The notes under the pieces were generated by a model. It was given only the letters and a program-made list of their open reading frames with translations, searched no databases and was not told the DNA's origin. DNA of 32,000 nucleotides from Candidatus Woesearchaeota archaeon (GTDB taxonomy: Archaea; Nanobdellota; Nanobdellia; Woesearchaeales; ARS49), in assembly GCA_018302815.1 (NCBI GenBank), contig JAGVZE010000017.1, positions 1,783 to 33,782 on the forward strand. Direction: 5' to 3'. Below are positions 5,560 to 32,000 of the stretch, in pieces. Each line of letters begins with the position of its first letter. The first letter of the stretch is position 1. Made by a program: the position numbers and the translations under genes.

Positions 5560-6251
5560 ACCCCAGGCAACGCGCCAAGCGCTTTTCCAATCAGGTAACC
5601 CGCTATAGCGGCAGTCATTCCCACAATCGCCATCTCGACACCTGATTTCAACGGCCGAACGCCAGTCATCTTGCCTTTAGCGGCACCTGAAACAAATAAA
5701 GTTAGCGTGGATATTATAAGAGTCAAAATAACAGCATCAGCTACGGGCAGCAAGACAAATGAAATAAGAGGAATGATGCTTCCCACAATCGCTGCAAGCC
5801 CAACTATAATCGCGTCTCTAACCGGGTGAGCGAACTCCTGCGGGTTAAGCCCAAGCTCATCACGCATCATCGTCTCAACCCAAATCTTCTTGTTGCTAGT
5901 GATTTTACGAACTATCTGATCGAGAAGCTTGCCGCTAAAACCTTTCCTTGCATAAATTTGACGAACTTCCTCACGCTCTTCCTTTGGAACAGCCTCAACC
6001 TCTTTTTGTTCAGTCTCAAGCTCTTTTTGATAATACTCTTTAGCAGCTTTACTGCTCGTGTACGCAACAGCAGCCATACTAATAGACTCTGCGAACGTTG
6101 CCGCAAGCCCCGAAATCATTATCATTTGCGTACTATGCGTAGCCTCGGCCACTGCAAGAACAATGCCGAGCACATTCACAAGACCATCCTGCCCGCCTAA
6201 AATAAGATCACGTATGACTGCAGAACCCTTACCGTGAACCTCTTTTCTCAT
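5556..6251 (-). CDS. VIT1/CCC1 family iron/manganese transporter
   Basis: GGQDGLVNVLGIVLAVAEA signature, a central charged loop, and C-terminal TM helices. TATA TTTTTTAAAG lies about 22 nt upstream. Confidence 0.85.
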   Translation of the reverse strand: MRKEVHGKGSAVIRDLILGGQDGLVNVLGIVLAVAEATHSTQMIMISGLAATFAESISMAAVAYTSSKAAKEYYQKELETEQKEVEAVPKEEREEVRQIYARKGFSGKLLDQIVRKITSNKKIWVETMMRDELGLNPQEFAHPVRDAIIVGLAAIVGSIIPLISFVLLPVADAVILTLIISTLTLFVSGAAKGKMTGVRPLKSGVEMAIVGMTAAIAGYLIGKALGALPGV

Positions 6252-6288
6252 GTTCTTAAAGAACGTTCCTCTCTTTAAAAAAGTTTAG

Positions 6289-8874
6289 TTACGGCCGTGG
6301 AAGACTCTTCGCCAAAGAAGGCTTGTAAAATCTTAGCAGCAAACTATTCGAGACAACGCTAACGCTCGAAAGCGACATCGCGATGCCTGCAAGCAATGGA
6401 TTAAGAAGAGTGCCTGTGAAAGGATAAATCGCACCAGCTGCCACAGGAATCAAGATAATATTGTACGCGAACGCCCAGAACAAATTCTGCTTTATTTTGC
6501 GCATGGTCTTTGCGCTCAATTCAATCGCGGTCACAACATCACGCACATCACTTTTCATCAACACGACATCACCAGATTCTATAGCAATGTCAGTTCCTGA
6601 CCCAATCGCAATGCCAACATCCGCTTGGCTAAGCGCAGGAGCGTCATTGACACCATCACCAACCATCGCGACCTTTTTGCCACGCTCCTGAAGCTGCTTT
6701 ACTCTTGAAGCTTTCTCACCCGGAAGAACGTTCGCCAGCACATCATCAATACCTGCCTCTTTAGCTACCGCCCTTGCCACGCGCTCATTATCGCCGGTAA
6801 TCAACATAACCTTCTTGCCAAGCCTGTGAAGCTCCTCAACTGTTTCCTTCGCGAAAGGCTTCAACTGGTCCGCTACCGCGATAATGCCAAGAAGCTGTTT
6901 TGAAGTCGCAAGATACACCACAGTCTTTCCCTGAAGCTCAAGGTCCTGCACTTTTTGTTCGATGCTTTCAACATCAATCTTTTCACCCGACATTAGCCTG
7001 CGATTTCCAAGCAACAAATTCTTGCCCTTGTAGCTAGCCTGCACGCCCTGGCCTGTGATAGACTTGAAATGAATCGCCTCAGGAATCGCTATTTTACGCG
7101 CCTTCGCAGCATTAAGAATAGCCTCAGCAAGAGGATGCTCGCTCTTGCGCTCAAGAATCGCCGCAAGCTGCAAAAGACCTTCCGCAGAAGACTTGCCCAC
7201 AGGGACAATATCGGTTACCTCTGGCTCTCCTTTAGTCAAAGTTCCTGTTTTATCGAATAAGACAACCTTTATGTCCCTTGTTTCCTGCAAACTCTTCGCG
7301 TTTTTGAACAAAATACCATTCTGCGCCCCCTTGCCGCTGCCAACCATCACCGCAGTCGGCGTTGCAAGCCCAAGCGCGCACGGACACGCAATTATAAGAA
7401 CCGCAACAAAACTCGTGAACGCAAGCGCCCAATCGCCAAACGTCCACCAAGAAACAAAACTCGCAACCGCTATCAAGATAACCGCGGGAACAAAATAATA
7501 CGAAACTTTGTCCGCAACTTCCTCGATTGGCGCCTTAGAACCCTGCGCTTCCTCAACAAGCCTCACTATTTGAGCAAGAGCCGTGTCTTTTCCAACCTTT
7601 GAAGCGCGCATATAGAATGAGCCAGTCTTGTTCACAGTTCCGCCGATAACAGCGCTTCCCTTCACCTTCTCAACAGGAAGACTCTCACCAGTAATCATGC
7701 TCTCATCAACCGAACTTAAACCATCAGTCACAACACCATCAGTTGGAATCCTCTTTCCCGGAGACACCAGCAGAATATCTCCAACTTGAACTTCATCAAG
7801 AGATATCTCTTGCGTGAACACTTCATCGCCGCGTTTGCCCGTAACTCTTAGCGCAGTCGTAGGCTGAAGGCTCAACAATTTACGAATAGCATCGCTCGCC
7901 TTACCCCTAGCTATAGCCTCAAGCAATTTGCCAAGCAAAATGAACGCCACGATAAGACCCGCGATCTCAAAATAAAGCATTTCCATCGTGTAGCCTTCTT
8001 TGCCAACCATCAACATCACGAACACAAACGCGCTGTACAAATACGCAGCTCCAGTACCAACCGCCACAAGACTATCCATATTCGGCACCCTGTTGATAAG
8101 AAGAGCGCGAAGACCTTTAGTGTAAAATTCAAAACCTGCAATGATAATTGGAGTTGCCAGCAACAATTGCAGCAAAGCGCTCGTTGTCATCGACAATTCA
8201 GGAAGCGGAAGCCCAGCCATGTGGCCCATCGCGAGATAAAGAAGAGGAACGCCAAAAACTGCCGCAATAGACACGCGCTTGCCCCAATGCGCAACCTCAG
8301 AATGCACCTTCGTGTCAGCCACGGTTGCGCCATAACCCGCATTCTTGACAGCAGCAATGAGGCTATCAACATTTCCTCCCTTGACTCTTGCTTTGGATGT
8401 CGCAAGATTAACCTTGACTTCTGAAACACCCTCAACTTTTCTGAGCGCGCCTTCCACAATCATCTGACAATGCGCGCTATCCATCCCTGAAATCTCAAGA
8501 GTGACAACACCAGACTCTAACTGCGTTTGCGCGTTTATCGTCTCATGAGACTCAGTCTTATAGCCTGACTTTTCTATCGCCTCGCGCAAAAGTTTCTCTG
8601 ACACAAGCTTTGGGTCATAATCAACAAACGCCTTTGATGCAGCAAAATTCACGCTGGCAGATTTCACACCCGCGATTTTTTTCAACGCAGTCTCAATCGT
8701 TCTTACGCAGTTAGCGCAGCGCATATTAGAAATGACAATGATAGCTTTGCTCACATCTTCAAATTTAGCCTTGCACTCCGCGCTGCAGAAATAGTAGGTC
8801 TGCGACCTGCCTTCAATCTTGAACTTCGCAGTTACCGGATTCACTTCCATGCCACACGAAGGGTCTTTAACCAT
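6289..8874 (-). CDS. copA: Copper-translocating P1B-type ATPase with N-terminal TRASH/YHS-like domain and two HMA domains
   Basis: DPSCGMEV...CSAEC (TRASH/YHS-like), HMA1 with CANC, HMA2 with a degenerate SAHC, TGES, CPC ([11 protein letters not shown]), [15 protein letters not shown]. Confidence 0.95.
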
Positions 8875-17287: not shown

Positions 17288-18493
17288 ATGACATTTTCAG
17301 AACTGAAATTACCAGCAAATATAGAAAAAGCGCTCAAAGAGCTAGGATACAGCAATCCAACATCCATCCAGCAAAAAACCATTCCTTTACTGTTCCAAGG
17401 AAAAGACGTAATCGGACAATCACAAACAGGATCGGGAAAAACAGCAGCATTCGGCCTACCTATAGTTTCACACATGAAACCAGGACAAGGCATACAAGCG
17501 CTCATATTAACGCCAACAAGAGAACTATGCGTACAGGTAAGCGAAGCGATACGAGGCTTTGCAAAATACACATCACTCAAAATAATCCCCGTATTCGGAG
17601 GAGTAGGCATAGGCTCGCAGCTACACGCCATAAGAACAGCAGACGTAGTGGTCGCAACACCAGGACGACTGCTAGACATAATGCAAAGAGGAGTTAGATT
17701 ATCAACAGTCAAGTTTTTGGTTCTAGATGAAGCCGACAGAATGCTTGACATGGGATTCATCGATGACGTTGAAAGAATCATACAGTCAACACCGAAGCAA
17801 CGCCAGACAATCCTATTTAGCGCGACACTATCACCAAAATTGCGATCAATTGTCAATCGGCACATGAAAGAACCCGCAGTCATACAGACAAAAACACAAG
17901 TCGATACACACTTGCTCACCGAAAAATCATTCTTTGTGCCATCTGGCGATAAAGTATCCCTTCTTGTGCACTGCCTCAAGAAAGAAACGCCAGGAATCGC
18001 GATCATATTCTGCGGAACAAGACACGGATGCGACAAAATCGCACGACGCCTAAGAGCTGAGAAAATAGATGCGACACCAATACACGGCGGACTTGCGCAG
18101 ACAAAACGAATGCACGTCATAGAAATACTGCACAAACGAGGAGTCGGAGTCCTAGTCGCAACTGACGTTGCCTCACGAGGAATCCACGTCTCAAACGTCT
18201 CGCACGTCTACAACTACGACTTGCCGCAAACACACGATGATTACATCCACAGAATCGGCAGAACGGCGCGAGCAGGCGCATCAGGAGAAGCAATCACATT
18301 CGTATCGCGCGAAGAAGAACGCGATTACAAGCACATGATGCGAAACCTAGGACGAAACATAACTCCAACGCCCCTTCCGGCATTCGAAAAAATACCGATG
18401 CCACAAGGCGGACCTGGCGGACCTGAAAACAACCGCGACTTCTACCGCCATAAAAGACACAAACGCTTCTCAAGGCAACAGGGCGGCCGATAA
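17288..18493 (+). CDS. DEAD-box ATP-dependent RNA helicase
   Basis: Q motif region, GSGKTAAF, PTRELC, DEAD (VLDEADRML), SAT, HGG...Q, VATDVASRGIH, HRIGRTARAG. Basic C-terminal tail. Confidence 0.9.
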   Translation: MTFSELKLPANIEKALKELGYSNPTSIQQKTIPLLFQGKDVIGQSQTGSGKTAAFGLPIVSHMKPGQGIQALILTPTRELCVQVSEAIRGFAKYTSLKIIPVFGGVGIGSQLHAIRTADVVVATPGRLLDIMQRGVRLSTVKFLVLDEADRMLDMGFIDDVERIIQSTPKQRQTILFSATLSPKLRSIVNRHMKEPAVIQTKTQVDTHLLTEKSFFVPSGDKVSLLVHCLKKETPGIAIIFCGTRHGCDKIARRLRAEKIDATPIHGGLAQTKRMHVIEILHKRGVGVLVATDVASRGIHVSNVSHVYNYDLPQTHDDYIHRIGRTARAGASGEAITFVSREEERDYKHMMRNLGRNITPTPLPAFEKIPMPQGGPGGPENNRDFYRHKRHKRFSRQQGGR

Positions 18494-18502
18494 GCGTGCA
18501 CT

Positions 18503-19042
18503 ATGGCGACCATAAAAGTAAAAGGATATGAATTCCCAGCCGTCTTAATCAAGGACTCATTCGGAAGACGAGCAGTCCAATACAAGAACGCCATAATACA
18601 ATCACTAAAGAAAATAGGAATCCTCGAACGCCATACCGACATAGTAATCGAGAACGCGCCGTTCAAGAAAATCGCGGCATCAGCCACATGGTACCACGAC
18701 GGCCACAGAATGTTCTACCAATATGACGGCGCCAACAATTACGCTGAAAACATGTACATTGTTTCTAAAGTAATAGAGTTCGAAGTCAACCAAGTCGCGC
18801 ACGGAACCAAACACATGCAAGACTTCATCAACGCATTCGCAGAAGAAGACGACGTAGATGAACAAAGAAAAGCAGCGCGAGAACTGCTTGGCGTCGACCA
18901 CGACACTAAAGATATGGATTTGATAAACAAGAAATACAAAGACCTTGCAAGAGCGCACCACCCTGACACTCCAACAGGCGATGCTGAAAAATTCAAAGCC
19001 GTCAACAAAGCGCACAAAATTCTCAAACGAGAGCTCGAGTAG
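18503..19042 (+). CDS. J-domain protein with unrecognised N-terminal domain
   Basis: C-terminal J domain KKYKDLARAHHPDTPTGDAEKFKAVNKAHKIL with the HPD tripeptide. Confidence 0.75.
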   Translation: MATIKVKGYEFPAVLIKDSFGRRAVQYKNAIIQSLKKIGILERHTDIVIENAPFKKIAASATWYHDGHRMFYQYDGANNYAENMYIVSKVIEFEVNQVAHGTKHMQDFINAFAEEDDVDEQRKAARELLGVDHDTKDMDLINKKYKDLARAHHPDTPTGDAEKFKAVNKAHKILKRELE

Positions 19043-19051
19043 AGGCCCATA

Positions 19052-19924
19052 ATGGAGCTTCACTTAGCGCCCCTTGAAAACGTAAGCTGCTGGGCATTCC
19101 GTAAAGTTTGCGCTGGGGCTACTGACACTTATACAGGAATGCTTTCTTTGAATAATTTGATTAAACGCAACAATACCTGGAAAGAAGTAGATACGTATCC
19201 GATAGCCGGGCAAAGACAATGGATACAAATAGCGACCTCCAAAGAAACAGAATGCGCTGAATTTTTGCGCAAGCTCGATGAGGAGCTCAAACGCTTTCCG
19301 GAAAAAGATAACGTGTACGGAATACAGCTCAACTGCAGCTGCCCATCACCGCAACTACTACGCATAGGACAAGGTCCAGCGCTAATAAAACGAGCAACAA
19401 AAGTCACAAATCTTGTTCGCGAGCTGCTAAAGCAGAACAAATGGAAAGTCTCAGTCAAAGTACGCCTTGGGTTGAATCTAATGGAAGTTCAACAGCGAAA
19501 GATACATACACTTCTTTCGTCCCTTGCCACTATAGATAATCCGAACTTCCACGGAGTTTCCATACATTTCAAACACGCACAGCAAAAATCAGCAGACCCA
19601 TACGATTATTCTTCGCTAAAAGAATTGCTGTCGTATAACGTGCCGATCATCATTAATGGCGGAATAAACAACGCGATTGATTACGTCAAAATAACGCGAG
19701 GAGTTGATGCTAAAAACATCCGCGGACTAATGGTCGGCAGAGCCGCGATAGAACACCCAGACGCAATCGCTGCAATCGCGCGTGAACTGTATGGCACTGC
19801 GTTCGAAGAACGTGAACTAACCGAGATACGAAGACAATTCTACGAAAACTGCTCTTTGCACGCGCCACAACCCGCGTACCTTGAGAAAATAAAAAAGTAC
19901 TGTAAATGGGCGCAAGAGCTTTAG
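19052..19924 (+). CDS. tRNA-dihydrouridine synthase-like TIM-barrel flavoprotein
   Basis: LAPLENVSCWAFRKV, IQLNCSCPSP...GQGPALI, SVKVRLG, VSIHFKH, PIIINGGI, LMVGRAAIEHP follow the order of Dus family motifs. Confidence 0.65.
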   Translation: MELHLAPLENVSCWAFRKVCAGATDTYTGMLSLNNLIKRNNTWKEVDTYPIAGQRQWIQIATSKETECAEFLRKLDEELKRFPEKDNVYGIQLNCSCPSPQLLRIGQGPALIKRATKVTNLVRELLKQNKWKVSVKVRLGLNLMEVQQRKIHTLLSSLATIDNPNFHGVSIHFKHAQQKSADPYDYSSLKELLSYNVPIIINGGINNAIDYVKITRGVDAKNIRGLMVGRAAIEHPDAIAAIARELYGTAFEERELTEIRRQFYENCSLHAPQPAYLEKIKKYCKWAQEL

Positions 19925-19972: not shown

Positions 19973-22261
19973 TCAGCAACTTATCGTTGCCGGATTGATG
20001 ACGCATTCTGTCTTGCTCAGGTCACAATATAGTTTTCCATTACAAGAAACGCCATCTTCATACGCCGCGCAGTCTGAATTATTCTTACACTGGCATTTGT
20101 GGCCGATTGCTGTTTTATTATACTGCCAGTTTTGCACGCATTCGCTCTGCGAACACGCAGCAGACATACACGGGTGCACTTGAGTACAGGACGCATTTTG
20201 ATTGATAAACTGCATACTGCACTTTCCTGTTGCCTGATTACAGGTGTTTTTTTGGCACTCATTATCATCAACACTCGGGCAATAAACAAGCGTGGCAGGA
20301 TTGTTCACGCATTGATTTGTTTGTTTATTACAGTAGGGAACTCCATTACACACATTGCCATCATCTTTACAATCGCTATTTTCCTTGCACTCACATTTTT
20401 TGCTTTCTGAGACTTTCTTGTAGTCCCAAGCGGTCACGCACTTGCCTTTCTGGCAGGCCGAATCCAAGCAAAAGTGTTCGAAAGAACAGGCTCCATTCTC
20501 GTTCACGTCTTTCATGCCGCACAAACCTGTTTTAGGATCGCACGTGTTTTTCTGGCACGCAGTGTCAAAAACAGTTTGACACGTAATCGTTGTCGCAGGG
20601 TTAAGCACGCACTTTCCAGTCTGCTTGTTGCAATACGAGACTCCATTACACAAGTCGCCATCGTCCTTGCAGTCGGCATCCTTCTCGCAATCACATTTAT
20701 AATTCCAGTCCAGAACGCATTGGCCTTTTTTACACGTTGAATTATAACAACCCCACTCACCGCAGCTTTCATCCTCTTTAACAGGCACCATCTTGCACTT
20801 TCCAGACTTCGGATCGCACGTGTTTTGAACACACGCAGCGTCGTCAACAGACGGGCACGTGATGATTGTCGCAGGATTAAGCATGCACTGATTGGTCGCC
20901 TTATTGCAGAAAAAGATTCCATTGCAAACGTTACCATCATCCGGACATTCAGAATCACTCTGACACTCGCAAGGCAATCCTTTAGATGTCTTCTTTGACT
21001 TATCAAAAACGCTTGAGCAAGCGCCTTGCGCAGTACAAGTTCCTGTCCAGCAAGGATGACCAGTCGCACACGAACTTCCAACAAGACTGTTTTTTTGGCA
21101 CGAGCCATTAGTTTTATCACAGCCAATTTTGACACACTCGTTATAATTCTTCGGGCAAGCAACGATAGTAGCAGGGTTTATCAGGCATTGGCCGCTCGCG
21201 AAATCACAATACAATTTGCCATTGCAATGATCGCCATCCTCAAATTCGCCACAATCCTTATCATCAACGCACTTGCAGGTCTGGCCGTTTTGCAGTTTTT
21301 TGCCAAGCACCCACTTGCTCTCGCAGGACCCCGCCTCACACTCCCACTCCACACACGGGTACGAGTCAAACTGCGCCGGACACGCGGTCTTGTCAGGAAG
21401 ATTATGCAATCCACACTTGCCTGTTGAAGGCTCGCACGCATATTTAGCGCACACATCCGCTTTTCCGCAGTCCAATTCAACGCCCGATTCCACACACACG
21501 CCAAAAACGCTTGAACCCATCACGCACGAAATTTCTTTGCAATGATTGACCGCAGGATTGTTAAGACAATCATTGACAGTCATGCACCCATACGAATGCT
21601 CAACTTTCGGAATAATCGCAAAAAACACCCACCAAGGAAGTTTTTCATTCAAAACCTCAAGACTGCCCGGCCTCATAGTTTTCGTTATCTGAACTGTTGT
21701 TGGAAAAATGCCAAATAATTTCGCAGGGCGAGAAACGGTGACACTAACCACGCCACCCTCTTCTTTGACAGAGACAGCTTTCTCATCTGATGCTACAGTC
21801 ACTGTTTTTTTCGGATCCAGAACAATTTGGTTTTCATCTATGATGGGTCTTCCAATCGATGGCGTGAACGGCGCTCTGATCTGAGGAACAATCGCTGATG
21901 GCAAAACGCTAACTGACGGCGTTATGACCTTGGGAATAGCAACCGGCGGCGGAACACTAACCTGCCTTGAAACCCTTTGCGCTGGCACAGTTCTTGGCAA
22001 GCTTACAGGCGCAGCCTCTGGCTGTTCACGCGAAACAGTCTCGTGCACAGGAACAGTTTCTTCCTGCTCTCTTGAAGGCGTTACGCACCCGCCATCACAG
22101 CCCAATTCACAAAGTTCACGAGTGTAATCACAAACACTCGTTCGCTCGTTCAAAGCTCCAGTGTAATAAACGTCGCCCTGACAATAACTCGCGCAAGGCT
22201 CGCGCGCGTACACTGATAACGCAAAAAATATGACAAGAGCAAAAACCGCACCTTTTTTCAC
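19973..22261 (-). CDS. Secreted modular Cys-rich repeat protein (about 760 aa)
   Basis: GTG 22261 is preceded by GGAGG, giving the signal peptide (M)KKGAVFALVIFFALSVYA. ATG 22279 is an alternative. A Pro/Val-rich linker is followed by 4.5 tandem modules of about 95 aa with the pattern C-x-C-x3-[SD]-x-C-x-DDG-x2-CNG-x3-C-[ND]-x5-C-x2-NPAT-x3-C. Confidence 0.8.
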   Translation of the reverse strand: MKKGAVFALVIFFALSVYAREPCASYCQGDVYYTGALNERTSVCDYTRELCELGCDGGCVTPSREQEETVPVHETVSREQPEAAPVSLPRTVPAQRVSRQVSVPPPVAIPKVITPSVSVLPSAIVPQIRAPFTPSIGRPIIDENQIVLDPKKTVTVASDEKAVSVKEEGGVVSVTVSRPAKLFGIFPTTVQITKTMRPGSLEVLNEKLPWWVFFAIIPKVEHSYGCMTVNDCLNNPAVNHCKEISCVMGSSVFGVCVESGVELDCGKADVCAKYACEPSTGKCGLHNLPDKTACPAQFDSYPCVEWECEAGSCESKWVLGKKLQNGQTCKCVDDKDCGEFEDGDHCNGKLYCDFASGQCLINPATIVACPKNYNECVKIGCDKTNGSCQKNSLVGSSCATGHPCWTGTCTAQGACSSVFDKSKKTSKGLPCECQSDSECPDDGNVCNGIFFCNKATNQCMLNPATIITCPSVDDAACVQNTCDPKSGKCKMVPVKEDESCGEWGCYNSTCKKGQCVLDWNYKCDCEKDADCKDDGDLCNGVSYCNKQTGKCVLNPATTITCQTVFDTACQKNTCDPKTGLCGMKDVNENGACSFEHFCLDSACQKGKCVTAWDYKKVSESKKCECKENSDCKDDGNVCNGVPYCNKQTNQCVNNPATLVYCPSVDDNECQKNTCNQATGKCSMQFINQNASCTQVHPCMSAACSQSECVQNWQYNKTAIGHKCQCKNNSDCAAYEDGVSCNGKLYCDLSKTECVINPATISC

Positions 22262-22339
22262 CAAAAAACCTCCACACATCAATAAATGGCAAACGGGTAT
22301 TAAAAATGTTCGAAAACACAAAACGCCCTTTTTTTGAAA

Positions 22340-22495
22340 ACGGCACGAATGGAGGACGGCGGGACGGGAGGACGGCACGTACGAAGAACGGCAAGACGAC
22401 TTGTCGGTGGACGGATGGACGGCAAGTATGGAGGACGGCTGACGGTAGGAAGGAGGACGGCGGGTACGGAAGACGGCAGAGGCTAAGACGGGGAT
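22340..22495. repeat. Degenerate 8-nt periodic GGACGG(C) tract (C-rich on the gene-sense strand)
   Basis: 13 ACGG cores at 22340, 22356, 22364, 22372, 22388, 22411, 22419, 22435, 22442, 22457, 22466, 22473 and 22488. Spacings cluster on 7-9 nt and 15-16 nt, except one gap of 23 nt. GGAGGACGGC occurs four times. Confidence 0.7.
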
Positions 22496-22543
22496 GGTCA
22501 CTTTGGAAACCCCTTGGTTTCCAAGGAAACCATGCGCGTATAC

Positions 22544-22876
22544 CTAAGACTTTAATAACGCCTTCTTCGCGAACTCCCTATTCGCCTCGTCCTTCACCAG
22601 ATCCAACATCTTCTTGTGGTAGGCGTTCCTGCGCGCTATCAGCTCTTCGCTCGGAGCGTGATTCGTCACGCTCCTGAACTCCTCAGCGCTCTTCCTGCCA
22701 ACAATAAACGACTTCTCAAGCTCAGATAACAACTTATCCTTGGCCGTCTTCACCAGTTCCGTCACATTGTAGCGAACCCACTCGCTCTTAGATATTTGCG
22801 TTGCACGCGATATGAAGTCTAAATCTTTGATAAGCGACATAGATAATCTGATGTTAAACTGCTCAGTCTCGTCCAT
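22544..22876 (-). CDS. Ribbon-helix-helix (CopG/MetJ-like) DNA-binding protein
   Basis: N-terminal FNIRLSMSLIKDLDFISRATQISKSEWVRYNV fits the beta-alpha-alpha RHH pattern. ATG 22876 is preferred over TTG 22897. Confidence 0.55.
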   Translation of the reverse strand: MDETEQFNIRLSMSLIKDLDFISRATQISKSEWVRYNVTELVKTAKDKLLSELEKSFIVGRKSAEEFRSVTNHAPSEELIARRNAYHKKMLDLVKDEANREFAKKALLKS

Positions 22877-22991
22877 GATGATAGCAAATGATAGCAATTA
22901 ATATTTAATGATTGTGTTGCTTCAGAAGGACGTTCTTTTAGGAATAATCCTGTCAAAACACTATATATAGTCTCATTTCGCTCATTCTCTT

Positions 22992-23180: not shown

Positions 23181-23387
23181 ATGGAGCATAAAATGAAAAA
23201 ATCAACGAAAAAACAAGAACTAAAAGTTGAAGCCGAAAAAGCAAAATTGATTCGAAGTTTAGTCAAAGCATACAGACAAGACTTAAGAGAGGAAATCCAA
23301 CGCATTAAAAAAACGAGCTTAAGAAAATTAAAAAAGGAAGACCATGACCAGTGGGTCAGAGACTTCATGGATATGACTGATTATTGA
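23181..23387 (+). CDS. Small basic coiled-coil protein (68 aa), hypothetical
   Basis: Lys/Glu-rich helical sequence, 19 nt downstream of the mini-ORF. Confidence 0.4.
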   Translation: MEHKMKKSTKKQELKVEAEKAKLIRSLVKAYRQDLREEIQRIKKTSLRKLKKEDHDQWVRDFMDMTDY

Positions 23388-23399
23388 ATAGTTGCCATA

Positions 23400-24869
23400 C
23401 TACTTGGCAATCTTTTGAAGCGCCTCAAGAATCTCAACCATCCCTTCAGTATCCCGCCCGCAATACTTTAACAGGTCTTCTCTTGCCTTTTTCACGTCCT
23501 TAGTGTTTAGTGTGTTGTTTAGGAGTGCGATAAACGCACGGGTGGCCGCTCCGCCTTCTGCGATGCCGAGTCCTTCGTAACCTTTTCCCGTCATTGAGGG
23601 CAGGACTTCTTTGATGGAGTAGCTTCCGTGTTGGTTGGGGTGGTAGTACCAGAACTCTCTGAATGGCGTTGCGAGATCATCCATTCGGTCAATTATTTGA
23701 GTTATCCATTTAGCGTCTTTTGGGAACGCTTCTGCCAAATCGTGCAGGACGCGTTTCTCAAAACTGGCGTTGAACGCCAAAACGCTCCCCTCCTTTGGCA
23801 ATTGTTTCAAACCCTCAAGAAACTCCTTGCGCGGGTCACCTTTGCCATCCGCAAGCACTTCAATATGCTTAACCTTGCCATTCTCTATAACGTGCGCTGA
23901 GAACTGGAACGGCACTTGCTGATACGGCCAAGTTCCAATAAAGAGAGGGACACCAGGATTTATCGTTTCAAAGTCAAGGCACGTGAGCGGTTCCTTGAAC
24001 GCCTTGAGAAAGTTCTTTATCGCTTTGACTTCAATGTGCGGCTTGCCCTTCTCAACCGCATCAATTTGAATTTGCTGCTTAGAACCCAATTTTACGTCAG
24101 ACGGAATGTTCTCAAAGGTGGTAATTCCTTGGTTGATGAGCGGCCAAGCTTTCTTTCCAAAATAATACAGTTCGGCAAGTTCAATCCCTTCTAAATCAGG
24201 AGCGCATACTGGGCAGTCCTTAGGCTCTTTGCACTCAGAACCGTACTTTGGCTTGGGACACTTGCCCTTAACGATTTCAAGCATACCTTCAATATTACCC
24301 TCAACTTCTTCTGACTTTGTAACTGCATCTTCAGTCACGTCGTGCTTTGCCAAAAACTCCTTAAGCTCTAGCTTTCCATCAAAAACATACTCATTATTGA
24401 CAACCATCAAATAGACCTTATGCAGTTTAACCCCTGCGCCAGTTAAGCAATAATACTGGAAGCCAACATCCTCCAAGTGCTCATCCTTGACTTCTGTTGA
24501 ACTCTTGACTTCAATAAGCACCCACTCATCCTTACCGTGAGGAATCAACAGGTCAGCCTTGCAATACGCATGCTTATACGCGAACGTGGCCTCAAAAAGC
24601 GGCTTACGCTCCCTCAAAAGCTCCTGAGTCGTCTTTACCGATGAACCGTCACGTTTCACTTCAAAACCATCCGGATAAAGCTGCTTGGCTAAAGCTCCAA
24701 CCTCATGACCCGCATCAAACCTTGCCTGCGTAGCAGCATCAACAGGCGGAATCCTCTCAGGAGCGTTAATTTTAAGCCAAAGAAGCTTAGGACAGGAAAG
24801 ACCGGAGGTGTAGTTGGATTTGGAGAGGGTACTTTTGCTGTTCATATGGCGTCTCAAAATATAATTCAA
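23400..24869 (-). CDS. Cas4-like PD-(D/E)XK/4Fe-4S nuclease fused to a DEDD-type exonuclease-like domain (DUF2779-type architecture)
   Basis: N-terminus: SCPKLLWL, D...IEVK, QYY, and the Cys cluster C-x9-C-x5-C-x2-C. C-terminus: LDFET (DxE), FNASFEKRVL, YCGRDTEGM. The family name is from memory of Pfam DUF2779. Confidence 0.75.
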   Translation of the reverse strand: MNYILRRHMNSKSTLSKSNYTSGLSCPKLLWLKINAPERIPPVDAATQARFDAGHEVGALAKQLYPDGFEVKRDGSSVKTTQELLRERKPLFEATFAYKHAYCKADLLIPHGKDEWVLIEVKSSTEVKDEHLEDVGFQYYCLTGAGVKLHKVYLMVVNNEYVFDGKLELKEFLAKHDVTEDAVTKSEEVEGNIEGMLEIVKGKCPKPKYGSECKEPKDCPVCAPDLEGIELAELYYFGKKAWPLINQGITTFENIPSDVKLGSKQQIQIDAVEKGKPHIEVKAIKNFLKAFKEPLTCLDFETINPGVPLFIGTWPYQQVPFQFSAHVIENGKVKHIEVLADGKGDPRKEFLEGLKQLPKEGSVLAFNASFEKRVLHDLAEAFPKDAKWITQIIDRMDDLATPFREFWYYHPNQHGSYSIKEVLPSMTGKGYEGLGIAEGGAATRAFIALLNNTLNTKDVKKAREDLLKYCGRDTEGMVEILEALQKIAK

Positions 24870-24871
24870 AT

Positions 24872-25861
24872 TTATTTCCAGAGTTCACTTATTTTTTTAG
24901 CCTTAAGCAATTTGGATAATTTCGTAAATCTTGGAGATTGCGGCGCCATTCCTTTTACGCCTTTATCCAACTCTATCGGGCTGACTGTTTTCTTATTTTT
25001 CAAATACAAGATGAATTTTCCTGAATCTTTATACGTGTCGATTCGTTCTATTTCGGCATAATTTCTTATCGCTGCAACTGGCGATTTTTCATACATTGCT
25101 AGATATCTTATTTGTTCGCGAGCCCTTTGTGATAGTCTGATTGCCCACCATGCATTCTTTTCAACGTATGCATGTTTAAACCCGTCTTCAAATGCCGGAC
25201 ACACGATGGTATCGATCTCTTCAATATCTGACTCTTTAGACTTTGTTTTTTTACCGTCGAATTCCTGCAATTCTTCTCTCATGGGTTCGTAAAAGTATGC
25301 AATATCTGTCTTGTTTACGTATCGTTTCAGTGTGACAACGTCAGGTCGTTCTCTAAATACGTCAAGTGCGTCATTCAGATCGGTGGTGGCTTCATCAATT
25401 ACCAAAACAATCTTTATCTTATTTTCAGTTAGAAAAATCATTAACTCATCAATATTCTTAAAATCAGTATTTTTAAGATATTTCTCTATTTCTTTAGAAA
25501 GTGCAGTATTTGATTTAATAACTTCAAGCAATTTAGTTCTAATTTGATTCTGAGACGTTCTTGTGATAGTTGTGAATCTTACCAACTGCTCAGAAATATG
25601 GTTGTAAACATCATGTGTTGACAACTCATTCTCAACAAAATACAGTCGAGGCTGCTTATTACTCGTAAAATCAATCAAATACCCATCAGGCACGCCTTTG
25701 TTATATGATTCAGACTTTCCAAAGCGCTTCTTAATATCAATATAAACAACATCGTTTCCGAACAAATATTTGCAATTTTCAATAACTGCCTTCTCAAACA
25801 CTTCTTCAGTCTCAAAATCCAGTAAACTGTATTTCTTCCCGCTGATAAGAATGTTAGTCAT
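24872..25861 (-). CDS. PD-(D/E)XK-like nuclease-fold protein with uncharacterised C-terminal domain (329 aa)
   Basis: VPDGYLIDF...LYFVENELSTHD...ISEQLVRF (D / ExE / QxxxF pattern). The C-terminal YLAMYEKSPVAAIRNYAEIERID...GKFILYL is a recurring module I cannot name. Its stop lies 2 nt before the downstream ATG, so the genes are coupled. TATA lies about 28 nt upstream of the ATG. Confidence 0.6.
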   Translation of the reverse strand: MTNILISGKKYSLLDFETEEVFEKAVIENCKYLFGNDVVYIDIKKRFGKSESYNKGVPDGYLIDFTSNKQPRLYFVENELSTHDVYNHISEQLVRFTTITRTSQNQIRTKLLEVIKSNTALSKEIEKYLKNTDFKNIDELMIFLTENKIKIVLVIDEATTDLNDALDVFRERPDVVTLKRYVNKTDIAYFYEPMREELQEFDGKKTKSKESDIEEIDTIVCPAFEDGFKHAYVEKNAWWAIRLSQRAREQIRYLAMYEKSPVAAIRNYAEIERIDTYKDSGKFILYLKNKKTVSPIELDKGVKGMAPQSPRFTKLSKLLKAKKISELWK

Positions 25862-25999
25862 GCTTTATCACTGGGAAGAGAGGGATATAAATGTTTTGTA
25901 GTGTTGTGTGCAATGCTACTGGAGGGATATCCTAATTTAAAGAATGGCAGTATTCTAATAGTTAACTGATTTTAGGTAGAAATACATAAAAAGGACTGG

Positions 26000-28726
26000 G
26001 TGAACCATTCAGATATGGACATTGTTGCTGCGCGTCAAGCCCTTCAAAAACTGGTTGATGAGTATAATAAGAAATTCAAAGATGATAAAAGTCTTCTGAG
26101 TAATGAAAAACAGATTTGTGCGAGTTTAATCCTTCCGCTTGTTGAAGCAGTTCTTCATTGGAATACTAAAGATGTTTCAGAATTTAGACTTGAAGAACAA
26201 AGAGCAGGAAAACGTCCTGACTATCTGGTCTATTATCAAGGCATGACGCAATTCATTGTTGAAGCGAAAGCCGCTACGAAAGATTTGTTCGAAGATGAAG
26301 CAGCATTAACGCAAGCACTTGAGTATGGATATAATGCGGATAAAGAATTCGTTATTTTAACAAATTTTAGACAAATTGTAATTTTAGCCCCTAAAATACA
26401 GTATCGGAATGTGCATGAAGCAGCTATTGCACGAATCAATCTTTTAACTGTAAGTGATGATGACTTGAAAACGTTATTGTGTTTTGAACGAGAATACTGG
26501 ATTTCAGCAGCTAAAGATAATCTTCTTTATTCAAAACTCGTTCATCATAAAAAATCTGTTCCTGTTGATGATCGCCTTTTGGATGATATGAAAAATTGGC
26601 GAGAAATGTTACTCACCAATATTCAAAAGAAAAATCTTAAATTAAATTTTGATGATGAACAGGACTTTGCAGAAATTGAGAAAGAAGTTCAAAAAATAAT
26701 AGATAGGTTGGTTTTCATTTGTTGTTGTGAAGATAAAGGAATTCACCATGAGCCAACTTTAAAACGATTGCTTAATGAGAAACAGACTCGTTATTCGATG
26801 ACTCTGGGCTGGTTATTGGAATCTATTCATGGACTTTTCGCAAAATATCGAAAAGTGCCTGATAGCGATCTTTTTGATATGAGTCCGGCTGATAAATACA
26901 TAATCGAAGATACAAAACTAATGGACTTATTGACTGATCTACGCGAACCGAAAGGCCGACCAGCATACAATTTTGATGAAATCGATGAAGACATTCTTGG
27001 CAAAGTTTATGAAAATTTTATCGGGCATGTTCAGACTGGAAAGAAGCGCTTCAAGGAAAAAGAAGATATTGGAAAACGAAAGAAGGAGGGCATTTATTAC
27101 ACGCCAAAATACATTGTTGAATACATAGTGAATAACACTGTTCGTGACTATATTAAAGGAAAATCATTTGAAGAAATTCTGAAAGTGAAAATTCTTGATC
27201 CCGCGTGCGGGTCGGGAAGCTTTCTTTTAAGGGCGTTTAATGTACTAATTGAAGAAGCTGCAAAAGCACTAAAACGGCCCTTGGAATATGCGGAGAAAAA
27301 GGACTTGCTTCTAAATTGTATATACGGAGTCGATCTTGATGAACGAGCCGTTGAGATTACCAAGTTAACATTTTCATTGAAACTGGCGCAGATTTCAGAA
27401 GGACTTCCAGTACTTGCGGATAATATTCGACACGGAAATAGTTTGATTGATGATAAAGAAGTGGCGGGCGATTATCTGGCGTTTAAATGGGAAGATGAGT
27501 TCAAGGAAATAATGACTGGTGGAGGGTTTAACATCGTGATTGGGAATCCGCCGTACGGTGTTGCATTCAAACTGGAGGAGAAAAAATATTTTGAACTGCA
27601 TTATTCATATGTGAAATCAGTTTATGAAAGTTATCGTTTATTTTTAGAGCGAGTCGCCGCGTTGGTTAAAGAAGAATCACTAGTTGGGTTAATTATACCA
27701 AACACTTGGTTTTATTTGACAAATGCACAACACATTAGAGTAGAACTGTTATCAAAATTTTCAATACTTAAATTAATTAACCTTCCTCAGAGCGTTTTTG
27801 AAGATGCAACTGTTGACACATGCATTATAATTTTTACGAAAAAGATCATCAATAACAATCAAATAGGGGCATATTTCTTCCCCCATAAAGATAAAATTAA
27901 CAATCTGAGCAATCTAAATTATGTGGCAGTCAAGCAAAAAGATTTGTTAGATTCTCCTGGAAGCGTAATTAATCTGAAACTGAATGTGGATGATGTTCAA
28001 TTAATTGCCAAGATAAAAAAACAACCAGTAGTCCTAAATGATTACGTTGAAATCATCACTGGTATTAAACCGTATCAAGTGGGCAAGGGAAACCCCTCGC
28101 AAACAAAAAGAATAGTTGACGAAAAACCATTTACTGCACTTACCAAATTAGATCAGACATTCAAGCCTTGGCTCACTGGTAAATTCATTTATCGATATGG
28201 CGTTTCCAAAAATAAAGAATATATTAGTTACGGAAAATGGCTTGCAGAGCCAAAAACGCCAAATATTTTTGAACGTGATAGAATTGTTCTGCAGCAAATC
28301 AGAAATCCTTCCTTACCTAGAAGAATTGTGGCAACATTCATTCGGGGTGGAATATACACGAACAACGGAATCCATAATTTACTTCCAAAAGATAAAGTTA
28401 AGACTTTTTGGATTCTTGGTATCCTTAATTCCAAATTAATGAATTTTTATTTTTCTGCTCACTATAATGATGTAAATATAAAACCCTCCAATCTCTATAA
28501 TTTACCTTATCCGATATATTCTTCTGAGTCAAAAATAAGTGAATTAGTGGGCAGGATTTTGGAGTTGAACGAAAAATTGAAGAACATTAAAGAAAAAAAT
28601 ACCGATGAAAGTAACAAGATACAAAATGAAATTCAAAAAATAGATGGGATGATTGATAACGAAGTTTTCAAGCTGTTTAACCTTTCTGATACGGAAATCA
28701 ATATAGTTCAACAGAATAACGTTTAA
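26000..28726 (+). CDS. Type IIG restriction-modification enzyme (MmeI/Eco57I-like fusion of endonuclease, gamma-class N6-adenine methyltransferase and TRD)
   Basis: N-terminal nuclease RPDYLVY...FIVEAK, motif I ILDPACGSGSFLL, motif IV VIGNPPYG, and a long C-terminal specificity region. GTG 26000 or ATG 26015. Confidence 0.9.
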   Translation: MNHSDMDIVAARQALQKLVDEYNKKFKDDKSLLSNEKQICASLILPLVEAVLHWNTKDVSEFRLEEQRAGKRPDYLVYYQGMTQFIVEAKAATKDLFEDEAALTQALEYGYNADKEFVILTNFRQIVILAPKIQYRNVHEAAIARINLLTVSDDDLKTLLCFEREYWISAAKDNLLYSKLVHHKKSVPVDDRLLDDMKNWREMLLTNIQKKNLKLNFDDEQDFAEIEKEVQKIIDRLVFICCCEDKGIHHEPTLKRLLNEKQTRYSMTLGWLLESIHGLFAKYRKVPDSDLFDMSPADKYIIEDTKLMDLLTDLREPKGRPAYNFDEIDEDILGKVYENFIGHVQTGKKRFKEKEDIGKRKKEGIYYTPKYIVEYIVNNTVRDYIKGKSFEEILKVKILDPACGSGSFLLRAFNVLIEEAAKALKRPLEYAEKKDLLLNCIYGVDLDERAVEITKLTFSLKLAQISEGLPVLADNIRHGNSLIDDKEVAGDYLAFKWEDEFKEIMTGGGFNIVIGNPPYGVAFKLEEKKYFELHYSYVKSVYESYRLFLERVAALVKEESLVGLIIPNTWFYLTNAQHIRVELLSKFSILKLINLPQSVFEDATVDTCIIIFTKKIINNNQIGAYFFPHKDKINNLSNLNYVAVKQKDLLDSPGSVINLKLNVDDVQLIAKIKKQPVVLNDYVEIITGIKPYQVGKGNPSQTKRIVDEKPFTALTKLDQTFKPWLTGKFIYRYGVSKNKEYISYGKWLAEPKTPNIFERDRIVLQQIRNPSLPRRIVATFIRGGIYTNNGIHNLLPKDKVKTFWILGILNSKLMNFYFSAHYNDVNIKPSNLYNLPYPIYSSESKISELVGRILELNEKLKNIKEKNTDESNKIQNEIQKIDGMIDNEVFKLFNLSDTEINIVQQNNV

Positions 28727-29007
28727 TAATTATTCAGTGTGATTTTCTCATTATTTACTTTCCAAGTTGGATCAAATGATGTTAAGTCGATTTTCGTTTG
28801 ATAACATTCCGCTGTTTTTGAACTAAAATCAACAATAATGCTACCTGATTTGAAATTGTCCGACATTTCAACTGGTCCCGCGAGACGATGGATGCGGTCA
28901 AGTTCGCTTCGGCTAAGTCGATCTCTTAAGAGATTCTTAACTACATAAACTGGCACTCTTAGAACCTTGTAGCTAGTCCCCTCTTTTATGAACAATTGGA
29001 TGTCCAT
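28723..29007 (-). CDS. Hypothetical protein (94 aa)
   Basis: ORF convergent with the RM gene, with a 4-nt overlap. No motif. Confidence 0.45.
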   Translation of the reverse strand: MDIQLFIKEGTSYKVLRVPVYVVKNLLRDRLSRSELDRIHRLAGPVEMSDNFKSGSIIVDFSSKTAECYQTKIDLTSFDPTWKVNNEKITLNNY

Positions 29008-29159: not shown

Positions 29160-30128
29160 TCACTCCTCTTCCTTCCCAAACCCGTTCGCACTATCGTTTT
29201 TAGTCGTACAAACATTTTTCTCATTGAAACTTTTCTTGAAGTTTGCAATGTTCTCAGTTATGGTTTTAGCATGAACAAATCCTAATGAGTCATATCGAAT
29301 TTTAGCAGCGTTAGAAGCTGAATCAATTCCCATGTGGAACGATTCTCGTTCCCCTTCACTTACTCCTTCTCTATCATCAATAATACACTTAATCGCCATC
29401 TTATACTCAGAACACTTATTCGCAACAGGCTGTATCAAGCCAGTAACGCTATCACAATAGCTCTGAACGCTTTTACCAAGTTTCAAAAGCCAATTAGCAT
29501 AGTACGCATCAGCAGGCACACTCTCACCAACTTCAAAAGGAGTGTTCTGTTCATCAGTTAGCTTAAAACAAGAAGCAGAAGCGGTTATCTTACTAGTAGG
29601 TGAAACTGTAGGAAGCGCATCGATTTTCTGATGCAAATACGTTTTAGACTGAACCACCTGATTCCAATTAGGTATGATTAACGCCTTGCACTCATCAGCC
29701 CTTTTCTGAAGCGAACCCAAATACGCAGTTATCGGTTTACCTTTAAGCGCGCAGTCCCCTTTCTTGAGGTCGAACGGAGCCTTCAAAGGCTTTTTCGCAA
29801 AGGTTTTCACAACAGGGCAAACAATCTCACCTGCCAGAAGCTTCACTGGCGTTACGGTCAGTTTGCTATTAATAGAAACGCACCCCTTCTTAGAGCAAAT
29901 CTGTGACTTAGTGCACGTTTGAGCACGAAGCCACATGCCTGCCTTGCAAAGCTGGAACGTGTTATCTTCACACCTACTAACACCTGATTGGCAAACAGGA
30001 CGAACAGCAACAGTGAGTGGAACGCTTACGTTCAGGAGAGGGGTGATACGCGTAATCGTACGCTCGGCAGTACGTTCAGCCAAAACAAAAGGAATTGAGA
30101 TCAAAAGCATCAAAATCAAGTATTTCAT
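29160..30128 (-). CDS. Secreted Cys-containing hypothetical protein
   Basis: Signal peptide MKYLILMLLISIPFVLA. ATG 30128 is preferred because TTAAATAC lies about 24 nt upstream. About 14 Cys in the mature part. Confidence 0.6.
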   Translation of the reverse strand: MKYLILMLLISIPFVLAERTAERTITRITPLLNVSVPLTVAVRPVCQSGVSRCEDNTFQLCKAGMWLRAQTCTKSQICSKKGCVSINSKLTVTPVKLLAGEIVCPVVKTFAKKPLKAPFDLKKGDCALKGKPITAYLGSLQKRADECKALIIPNWNQVVQSKTYLHQKIDALPTVSPTSKITASASCFKLTDEQNTPFEVGESVPADAYYANWLLKLGKSVQSYCDSVTGLIQPVANKCSEYKMAIKCIIDDREGVSEGERESFHMGIDSASNAAKIRYDSLGFVHAKTITENIANFKKSFNEKNVCTTKNDSANGFGKEEE

Positions 30129-30215
30129 AAAACAACACAAAGATAAGAAGTATTTAACCATTATTCACGCGAGCAGAGTAGCTTGAGCTTTGATTCAATC
30201 GCCTTTTTTAGCGCG

Positions 30216-31108: not shown

Positions 31109-32000
31109 TCAATGGCAAGACATCGCGCACGCAGGATCGGTGGTCTGGTAGGGATTGCATTGCTGGCACGTTGACCATCCCGCAAAACCGCAACTATAAC
31201 TGTAGCAATTCTGAACGGTAGTGGTGCACGCGTTTATACAATCCTGATGTGATGTACAGATGCCATTCGAACAACTTTGTGAATAGCACTGAGACCACGA
31301 GTAACAAGATTGACCATTCTGATTCAGGCAACCCTCATCTGTTTGGCCGTTGCAATTGTCGTCGATATTATTGCCACATACGTCTTGCACAGAATATGCC
31401 TGTCCAGGAGTGCAGCCTTGCGGAACTCCATTTATACAACTCTGAACAGTATGCAGACACACACCAAGACCGCAGGATATCGTTCCTGGAGTGCAGGGTG
31501 GCGGGGGGCAACCCTCATCTGTTTGGCCGTTGCAATTGTCGTCGATATTATTACCACACATTTCAGGAATAGGAGTTCCCGGAGTCGCAGAACACGGACC
31601 TGGGGCACCGAGCACGCCATTCACACAGTGTCGTATCTGTATGCCTGTGTTAGCACATCGACCAACACCAACACTACATTGTACTGGCACAGGAGTGCAC
31701 GCAGGAACGCACGCTTGTACACACGCGGGATTCGTGGTTTGGTAGGGGTTGCAGCTTTGGCACGTTGACTGTCCAAACCACCCGCAGCTATAGCTGTAGC
31801 AGTTCTGGACTGTAGTGGTGCATGCGTTGACGCAGTCTTGATAGGGTGCACAGACGTTGCTCACGCAGTTTTGGGACTGGCAGCCGGATCCGGACGCGCA
31901 GGCATTGCCGTTTGGCTGGTTCACACAGCCGTCTTCGTATTGGCCATTACAGTCGTCATCAATATTATTGCCGCAGATTTCAGGAACAGGAGTTCCCGGA
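31109..32000 (-). CDS. Cys-rich repeat protein with CGNNIDDNCNGQTDEGC motifs (5'-truncated by the window edge)
   Basis: The frame stays open to position 32000. The track start at 31924 is an internal GTG. There are three copies of C-G-N-N-I-D-D-[ND]-C-N-G-Q-x-[DE]-[DE]-G-C and duplicated QDC[VI]NACTTTVQNCYSYSCG modules. Confidence 0.8.
   Translation of the reverse strand, partial: PGTPVPEICGNNIDDDCNGQYEDGCVNQPNGNACASGSGCQSQNCVSNVCAPYQDCVNACTTTVQNCYSYSCGWFGQSTCQSCNPYQTTNPACVQACVPACTPVPVQCSVGVGRCANTGIQIRHCVNGVLGAPGPCSATPGTPIPEMCGNNIDDNCNGQTDEGCPPPPCTPGTISCGLGVCLHTVQSCINGVPQGCTPGQAYSVQDVCGNNIDDNCNGQTDEGCLNQNGQSCYSWSQCYSQSCSNGICTSHQDCINACTTTVQNCYSYSCGFAGWSTCQQCNPYQTTDPACAMSCH
31327..31552. repeat. 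Exact 46-nt intragenic direct repeat, 180 bp apart
   Basis: GGCAACCCTCATCTGTTTGGCCGTTGCAATTGTCGTCGATATTATT occurs at 31327-31372 and 31507-31552. A diverged third copy lies at about 31925-31975. Confidence 0.85.

Follow-up and report, generated by a model that had tools for sequence, protein, structure and literature searches.

The window analysed here, by which we mean the whole stretch of 32,000 nucleotides (nt) from a Candidatus Woesearchaeota archaeon (contig JAGVZE010000017.1, positions 1,783 to 33,782), carries two neighbouring genes, termed A and B, whose products are both predicted on fold and motif grounds to be nucleases; to this extent our results agree with a first-pass annotation of the same DNA that was made from its letters alone. 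That annotation had further taken the two genes for a conserved two-nuclease defence module. The survey of their relatives described below leads to a different conclusion: A and B are no conserved pair. We favour, with a rough probability of 0.55, the reading that two independent units adjoin in the window, namely a modification-sensing nuclease (A) that arrived with a restriction-modification (RM) cassette, and a stand-alone nuclease (B).

Eighty genome loci holding A and 89 loci holding B were surveyed for the respective partner within 8 kilobases (kb). A relative of B was found at three of the 80 A loci and never in tail-to-head arrangement; at one of them (L006) it is divergent from A with one gene in between, and at the other two (L011 and L024) the genes lie about 5 kb apart. 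A relative of A, and a partial one, was present near B at a single locus out of 89 (L160). The arrangement seen in the window is repeated at no other surveyed locus. The order RM gene, A and B does occur on 17 contigs of the organism; these contigs represent one population, so that they count as a single observation. The immediate neighbours of B (n = 127) fall into 98 Pfam families, none of which occurs more than three times. The first-pass annotation had named neighbourhood conservation as the check on its module, and a lack of co-conservation in other genomes as the outcome that would speak against it; the check was run, and with a partner at 3/80 A loci and 1/89 B loci, a heterogeneous set of neighbours of B and a difference in G+C content between the two genes, lack of co-conservation is what we found.

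This difference in base composition is substantial. The G+C content amounts to 0.351 for A, 0.347 for the type IIG RM gene next to it, 0.348 for the intergenic region between these two and 0.368 for orf94, a short open reading frame (ORF) at the far end of the RM gene, as against 0.469 for B and 0.42-0.52 for the remaining genes of the window; A and B are hence 12 points apart. Since base composition groups A with the RM gene and B with the host, A belongs with the RM gene. An AT-richer stretch, in which the pair as a whole had been placed, is indeed present (G+C content of 0.35-0.37), but it comprises A together with the RM gene and orf94, and not B. We read this low-G+C block (Table 1) as a horizontally acquired cassette; a search for flanking repeats at its ends found none. 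What looked like a system, a pair of nuclease genes side by side and closely spaced, is on this evidence a juxtaposition by insertion, a common trap in defence islands.

The first-pass annotation had described a gap of 2 nt between A and the ATG of B, and translational coupling of the two genes. The spacing is tight as stated; however, the junction reads TAA-AT-TTG, that is, the codon 2 nt past the stop codon of A is TTG, and the first ATG stands at position 24845. The N-termini of homologues agree with this ATG, and on other contigs of the same organism the corresponding protein of 481 amino acids (aa) is what gene callers yield. ATG 24845, 26 nt beyond the stop codon of A, is thus most likely the start of B. 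With TTG at 2 nt and the ATG 26 nt away, translational coupling between A and B is therefore not shown. Scans of the interval between A and B revealed no convincing terminator or promoter, these scans being of the bacterial type and uninformative for an archaeon. If the two genes share a transcript in the window, the landing of the cassette at this site may be the sole reason.

The partial A relative at L160 is a 335-aa protein (4808-5815) that has only the N-terminal nuclease module in common with A and is encoded on the same strand 333 nt upstream of B (6149-7621). Several other candidates for a partner gene were rejected. Three of them are not relatives of A: the 266-aa gene beside B in L081, the PD-(D/E)XK gene upstream of a plasmid copy of B, and the gene that precedes B in L087. 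The gene downstream of the closest A homologue, considered as a possible relative of B, proved to be a IIG-type RM gene.

Fold, family and genomic company of gene A

No family match was obtained for A in Pfam, NCBIfam, PADLOC or PHROGs, and searches of A and B against the sequences of the Protein Data Bank (sequence and profile searches) gave chance matches only. Homologues of A nevertheless number 607, many of them full-length at 55-73% identity, and come from archaea and bacteria, with Woesearchaeota, Heimdallarchaeota, methanogens and many bacterial phyla among the hosts. A genome scan with a single-sequence pattern of A found nothing, whereas an alignment-based scan detected A in 120 of 185,579 species genomes, scattered over phyla. 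Such a sparse scatter is typical of a horizontally moving gene. There was no match in viruses or phages; of A, plasmids carry only the C-terminal domain described below, and this in two cases.

The structure model of A (predicted local distance difference test, pLDDT, 84; predicted template modelling score, pTM, 0.81) gives an identity to the C-terminal module that the first-pass annotation had left unnamed: as modelled, this domain is a PUA-like barrel whose nearest relatives are ASCH, EVE and YTH domains. Its best match in Foldseek searches was ZmASCH (5y6b; E 2e-4, probability 1.00), followed by MJECL36 (2p5d) and PH1033 (2hd9); the best eight matches are ASCH or EVE-like over ~130 aligned columns, with YTH domains further down. 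A Pfam sequence search with the barrel gave no match. For the N-terminal part, the Foldseek matches are weaker and point to restriction enzymes of the PD-(D/E)XK fold: the small subunit of R.BspD6I (probability 0.92), BsmI, HamA, EndoMS, PfoI and PspGI. When profiles of A and of the nuclease domain of the adjacent RM enzyme were compared, no relation was seen. The motifs PDGYLIDF, FVENEL and QLVRF pointed out in the first-pass annotation are all present, at aa 58, 75 and 92. When ~100 divergent representatives are compared, residues E19, E23, K44, D59, E77, E79, H83 and Q92 of the N-terminal module are kept in 92-100%, and W238, an aromatic residue at 239, Y253, Y257, an aromatic residue at 277 and K282 are conserved in the barrel.

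Exchange of modules was surveyed among the 150 best representatives of A. Full-length proteins account for 48 of them. In 12 representatives the nuclease module is joined to another C-terminal domain (SeqA_C, DUF5655 or DUF4268), and one more, P0376, carries an N-terminal EVE domain instead; conversely, 23 representatives combine the barrel with another N-terminal domain, the partners including GIY-YIG with RAMA/DUF4357, HSDR_N, VRR_NUC, Mrr_cat, GmrSD_N, a protein kinase and a trypsin-like protease. This distribution suggests that the barrel is a portable sensor domain that works with many effectors. Several of the swapped domains are recognised or predicted readers of methylated DNA: SeqA binds hemimethylated GATC, EVE reads modified cytosines, and for RAMA the reading of N6-methyladenine (m6A) is predicted (PMC4738411, PMC7641849, PMC11037411). 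Individual barrel fusions are found in P0357 (575 aa), P0308 (266 aa), P0363 (501 aa) and P0352 (463 aa), with a Ser/Thr protein kinase, a trypsin-like protease, the GmrSD N-terminal domain and an Mrr nuclease as partners.

The genes that travel with A are above all those of RM systems. Among its 139 immediate neighbours RM families dominate, with ResIII (14), Eco57I (9), DEAD (9), N6_Mtase (7) and Piwi (5) in the upper ranks, followed by SWI2_SNF2, RE_endonuc and M_Eco57I_C (4 each) and by HSDR_N and MmeI_Mtase (3 each). Judged from cluster representatives, the systems at A loci include Type III (mod/res), Type I (hsdM, hsdS, hsdR), Eco57I-type methylases and PLD-SNF2 proteins of the DISARM type. 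At seven loci from different phyla the order is mod-res-A with gaps of 12-34 nt, and at 18 loci a co-directional RM gene lies within 60 nt of A. An RM methylase is present within 3 kb at 23 of the 80 A loci (29%) versus 3 of the 89 B loci, and within 8 kb at 36 versus 9 loci, a contrast that may be somewhat inflated because the methylase queries were drawn from A loci; when only fully flanked A loci are considered, the 8-kb count is 21 out of 35. The RM methylase families beside A are all of the adenine type. The closest homologue of A (73% identity) has a IIG-type gene 84 nt downstream, and hsdM follows another close homologue; the IIG enzyme of the window, in turn, is ~27% identical over residues 12-615 (its N-terminal two-thirds) to the IIG-type genes of other A loci. 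We regard the A family as widely transferred, RM-linked putative nucleases with a predicted ASCH-like reader. Its genes are unlabelled at present because the annotation and defence-finder libraries that we examined contain no model for them.

At five loci of the Cytophagales type (L037, L038, L039, L041 and L064), a gene for a 699-aa Piwi-domain protein (Argonaute) comes 9-10 nt after A, located at 8988-11087 in L041 and at 8995-11091 in L064; at L037-L039 and L041 an Eco57I-type RM pair precedes A. The A protein may also be an Argonaute-associated nuclease.

Gene B and the site upstream of it

B belongs to the DUF2779 proteins (Pfam PF11074; 6e-40, 136.8 bits at a cut-off of 23.3), the match spanning aa 298-418 of the longest, 489-aa ORF. 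Its N-terminal part matches Pfam Cas_Cas4 at 5e-4 (20.6 bits, below the curated cut-off of 22.7) and the PADLOC Cas4 model at 5e-6. Numbered from the ATG, the Cas4-like domain contains C18, D98, E112-V-K114, FQYY at 129 (with Q130) and cysteines 205, 211 and 214, all of them either unchanged across 31 homologues or kept in at least 90% of these. The exonuclease domain contains LDFET at 290, FNASFE at 358 and YCGRD at 461, and in the same 31 homologues D291, E293, E363, Y461 and D465 are invariant; in this DEDD set, Glu takes the place of the third acidic residue and Tyr that of the fifth residue (DEDDy). The conserved residues of both domains are compatible with two active nucleases. The fusion of a Cas4-like with a DEDD-type nuclease that the first-pass annotation had recognised is borne out by the DUF2779 match and by the conservation of the motifs and of the four cysteines. 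Its three exonuclease motifs were also found, but the histidine that it placed in the last of these was not, the motif being Y-x3-D. The structure model of B has a pLDDT of 94.8. Of the features of Cas4, the RecB-type motifs and the four iron-sulphur cysteines are present in B; the model score lies below the cut-off, and an association with cas genes was not seen, as there is no CRISPR array in the window and B is the only Cas-model match among the ORFs scanned near the pair.

The DUF2779-type fusion, for which the first-pass annotation knew of no assigned function, is already in the literature as an architecture. PF11074 was grouped with RNase H-like 3'-5' exonucleases in 2014, and its co-occurrence with a Cas4-type domain was noted (PMC3985635); in 2026, MMSYN1_0389 of JCVI-syn3.0 was described as a quasi-essential Cas4-like/DEDD fusion with the same His-to-Tyr change (PMC13621843). 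Like MMSYN1_0389, B combines the two nuclease domains and has the DEDD set in its tyrosine form, but it keeps the four iron-sulphur cysteines that MMSYN1_0389 has partly lost. As DUF2779 proteins go, B is archaeal, with relatives in Woesearchaeota. The family is large, with at least 2942 homologues among the scored candidates and at least 582 metagenome loci; it is found on 33 plasmids, and no phage record of it was found. From its conserved motifs, B is best read as an independent nuclease predicted to trim DNA ends.

With the window counted, five closely related B genes (69-84% identity) were sampled, and each has a different defence system directly upstream (Table 1), so that the slot behaves as variable in this lineage. 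No flank synteny is shared among these relatives. The site upstream of B looks like a defence-integration hotspot, or else the B gene itself is mobile. The defence-island setting proposed by the first-pass annotation is supported, with these systems upstream of B and the type IIG RM neighbour in the window. Between B and the defence cargo, L081 (8985-9122) and L182 (7765-7899) share a 44-45-aa ORF that is 77% identical in the two.

More distant B loci are mixed: L085 has a housekeeping context (CCA-adding enzyme, GAPDH, RNase HII, SMC), L184 is a DNA repair locus (DinB, PolX, GIY-YIG) and L187 is nondescript, while L088 and the plasmid copies, in which a WYL gene comes after B, are defence-like. 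On the plasmids of Aliarcobacter butzleri (L180, 5995-8334) and Rhodoferax antarcticus (L181, 5998-8468), a WYL-domain gene directly follows the DUF2779 gene, and nuclease, ATPase, PLD and helicase genes surround it. The DUF2779-WYL pairing may be conserved in bacteria.

Weighing of the readings

In the explanation that we favour, the first unit is the low-G+C cassette with the type IIG RM enzyme and A, which would have inserted into the variable defence slot upstream of B. The barrel of A would flip out a base and inspect it in its conserved aromatic pocket, thereby reading the modification or methylation state of the DNA, and this reading would license the catalytic module to cut. A would then act as a modification-dependent (Type IV-like) restriction nuclease that backs up adenine-methylase RM systems, for example against DNA that escapes them through foreign modification. 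The second unit is B, standing alone, whose Cas4-like iron-sulphur domain and DEDDy 3'-5' exonuclease would trim DNA ends in both polarities. Fusions of PUA-family readers to nucleases are modification-dependent enzymes (PMC6765204, PMC7897488). The TspA15I/VcaM4I EVE-HNH, YenY4I, MspJI and PvuRts1I/AbaSI types resemble A, as we model it, in that a PUA-like base-flipping barrel and a nuclease are united in one polypeptide, and in their sporadic, horizontally spread occurrence in defence islands; at the level of sequence, homology of A to these types is not detectable. In PvuRts1I and AbaSI, the nuclease is N-terminal and the reader C-terminal, which is the order found in A. The enzymes recovered in the screen of Lutz 2019 carry their PUA readers at the N-terminus, and fewer than 6% of them have a DNA methylase within 3 kb (PMC6765204); in A the order is the reverse, and roughly a quarter of its loci are embedded in RM operons. 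A also differs from the PUA-nuclease enzymes in that its barrel is nearest to ASCH, which is not known to read DNA marks, and in its motif, D...E-x-E with a separate conserved lysine.

A number of observations weigh against this explanation. The nuclease-fold matches of A are individually weak (Foldseek E 0.03-0.5), and profile searches link it to no known nuclease family; in E77-x-E79 a glutamate replaces the usual lysine of (D/E)XK, the conserved lysine lying elsewhere. The domain order of A, reversed relative to known PUA-nuclease enzymes, and an RM methylase within 3 kb in 29% of its loci imply that A may work with the RM system and not independently. Type IV-like enzymes are recognised by having no cognate methylase nearby, and A does have RM methylases nearby (23/80 loci within 3 kb, 21/35 fully flanked loci within 8 kb), even if the contrast with B may be somewhat inflated. 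Fusion of the barrel to a protein kinase and to a protease fits a signal sensor better than a reader of DNA sites, and for ASCH proteins of known activity the substrates are RNA or acylated cytosines (PMC5615036, PMC11037411). For the domain order, the embedding in RM operons, the E-x-E motif and the kinase and protease fusions, we keep a guard-type reading open.

According to that guard-type reading, A is a guard or accessory of RM systems whose PUA-like domain senses attack or RM failure and triggers a non-specific nuclease, resulting in abortive infection. The signal might be a shift in methylation state, or methylated nucleotides set free when host DNA is degraded, and the logic would be like that of PrrC in the EcoprrI locus or of the PUA-Cal-HAD system. 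We hold this to be unlikely, yet a serious contender: A is embedded in RM operons (the mod-res-A loci and the 18 loci with a closely spaced co-directional RM gene), the methylases beside it are uniformly of the adenine type, its barrel is fused to non-nuclease effectors (kinase and protease), and a PUA domain that senses N6-methyl-deoxyadenosine monophosphate (m6-dAMP) has been reported (PMC12871103). On the other hand, an RM methylase is missing from the 8 kb around A at ~40% of the fully flanked loci, so that A can exist alone, and the swap partners SeqA_C, EVE and RAMA are readers of DNA marks. To a related proposal we assign much the same tentative standing, namely that A is an accessory of RM operons, the ASCH-like barrel of which would read the adenine methylation set by the partner, on DNA or on freed nucleotides, and gate the nuclease, the barrel being a portable sensor elsewhere. 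If this were true, A would contain the first ASCH-type domain that reads m6A in defence, and it would add an extra control layer to Type I, III and IIG restriction and to some Argonaute loci. A third view, in which the PUA-like domain binds RNA and A is an RNA-directed or housekeeping nuclease, strikes us as very improbable. Its best structural match, ZmASCH, is a single-strand RNase (PMC5615036), and ASCH proteins act on N4-acetylcytidine (ac4C) in RNA; however, genes for DNA restriction-modification dominate the neighbourhood of A, its swap partners read DNA marks, and a presence in 120 of 185,579 species genomes, scattered as it is, is the pattern of mobile defence and not of housekeeping.

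Two further alternatives concern B. It might cooperate in general with DNA-modification-based defences, for instance by degrading the fragments they produce, in which case its adjacency to RM genes would be functional without being specific to A. A defence system lies directly upstream of B in five of the five close relatives sampled, the plasmid copies stand beside WYL regulators, PLD and helicase genes and DUF2130, and some metagenomic neighbours match GmrSD, BrxL, DndC or retron-type reverse transcriptases. We nevertheless consider this cooperation doubtful, as other B loci have the housekeeping or repair contexts of L085 and L184, an RM methylase lies no more than 8 kb from B at only 9 of the 89 loci, and JCVI-syn3.0, a minimal cell free of viruses, has a quasi-essential homologue (PMC13621843). 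Least probable of all is the dedicated defence system in which A and B work as a unit. The two genes are co-directional and 26 nt apart, they keep their order on the 17 contigs, and relatives of both are found within 8 kb at 4 of ~160 loci, by a rough estimate slightly above chance; but their arrangement recurs at no other surveyed locus, the A relative at L160 is a partial one with the N-terminal module, the 17 contigs are a single observation of one population, G+C content differs by 12 points, and the neighbour sets of A and B are unrelated.

The favoured reading of A touches on an existing prediction, according to which the ASCH and RAMA domains of adenine-methylase RM systems serve to discriminate m6A (PMC4738411; Iyer, Zhang and Aravind 2016). 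A has the operon link to N6-adenine methylase RM systems in common with these RM-associated domains; RAMA and GIY-YIG domains occur in proteins related to its barrel, and SeqA_C in proteins related to its nuclease module. Text searches did not find the 329-aa A family by name in the literature on this prediction. From the stand-alone EVE and ASCH genes beside archaeal Type I RM systems (Bell et al. 2020), A differs in being fused to its own nuclease. If the modification-sensing reading of A is right, a compact, highly conserved protein could serve to test the ten-year-old prediction of methylation discrimination by ASCH domains, and the carriage of a nuclease inside Type I, III and IIG operons of archaea and bacteria could be explained.

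Other features of the window

Table 1. Features of the window, and of the site upstream of B in its close relatives (positions in the latter are those of the respective locus).
Feature	Coordinates	Strand	Remarks
Gene A	24872..25861	-	ORF scan; 329 aa, ATG start; predicted nuclease with PUA-like reader domain
A, N-terminal module (aa 1 to ~200)	25262..25861	-	predicted restriction-endonuclease fold with helical and alpha/beta extension
A, C-terminal domain (aa ~214-329)	24875..25222	-	predicted PUA-like beta-barrel
A-B spacer	24846..24871	-	26 nt; holds in-frame TTG at 24869
Gene B, longest ORF	23400..24869	-	ORF scan; 489 aa
Gene B, preferred form	23400..24845	-	481 aa, ATG start; DUF2779 protein
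B, Cas4-like PD-(D/E)XK domain (aa 1 to ~225)	24171..24845	-	residues conserved in 31 homologues
B, DUF2779 RNase H-like exonuclease domain (aa ~285-481)	23403..23993	-	
Type IIG RM enzyme	26000..28726	+	908 aa; divergent from A; N-terminal nuclease, adenine methylase, TaqI_C specificity
orf94	28723..29007	-	94 aa; convergent with RM gene, 4-nt overlap with its end
Low-G+C block	24872..29007		~4.1 kb: A, intergenic region 25862-25999, IIG RM gene, orf94
Small ORF	23181..23387	+	68 aa, low G+C; no library match
117-aa ORF	22544..22897	-	weak CopG/ribbon-helix-helix-like matches (PHROGs transcriptional repressors, E 9e-4 to 3e-3)
Upstream of B, window	24872-28726		A and IIG enzyme
Upstream of B, L081	8985-9949		Type I RM
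Upstream of B, L182	276-7899		Dnd genes and SNF2 helicase
Upstream of B, L183	346-1215		Schlafen/AlbA_2 gene
Upstream of B, L087	2-1093		end of TaqI_C-type methylase

The neighbour of A is a type IIG RM gene in divergent orientation, as the first-pass annotation had it. Its product combines nuclease, methylase and specificity functions in a single chain (PADLOC REase_MTase_IIG, 1e-89) and matches Pfam Eco57I (1e-32), N6_Mtase (4e-27), TaqI_C (4e-15) and MmeI_Mtase (1e-12), with a weak HSDR_N match at aa 59-130. It is like the MmeI/Eco57I-type IIG enzymes, in which a nuclease is combined with a gamma-type adenine methylase and TaqI_C, and nothing out of the ordinary was noted in it.

The ribbon-helix-helix and toxin-like mini-genes that had been seen around the pair reduce to one weak CopG-like match (E ~1e-3), that of the 117-aa ORF, for which Pfam and NCBIfam gave no match; the remaining small ORFs are without matches. 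The RM cassette and B are flanked by orf94 and by the 68-aa ORF. On other contigs of the organism, orf94 is called as the same ORF. It had no match in Pfam, NCBIfam, PADLOC or PHROGs, and it may not be a real gene.

The only RNA families detected in the window are two tRNAs. Large cysteine-rich proteins of 842, 333 and 271 aa are encoded on the minus strand at 19973-22501, 29160-30161 and 31109-31924; the 842-aa and 271-aa proteins contain repeated Cys-rich modules, and a 38-nt tandem repeat (22384-22477) lies within the 5' end of the 842-aa ORF. These are probably surface proteins of the archaeal host. An ordinary host block on the plus strand (17288-19924) encodes a DEAD-box helicase, a DnaJ-domain protein and a Dus-like tRNA dihydrouridine synthase, and it adjoins the 842-aa gene on other contigs of the organism as well.

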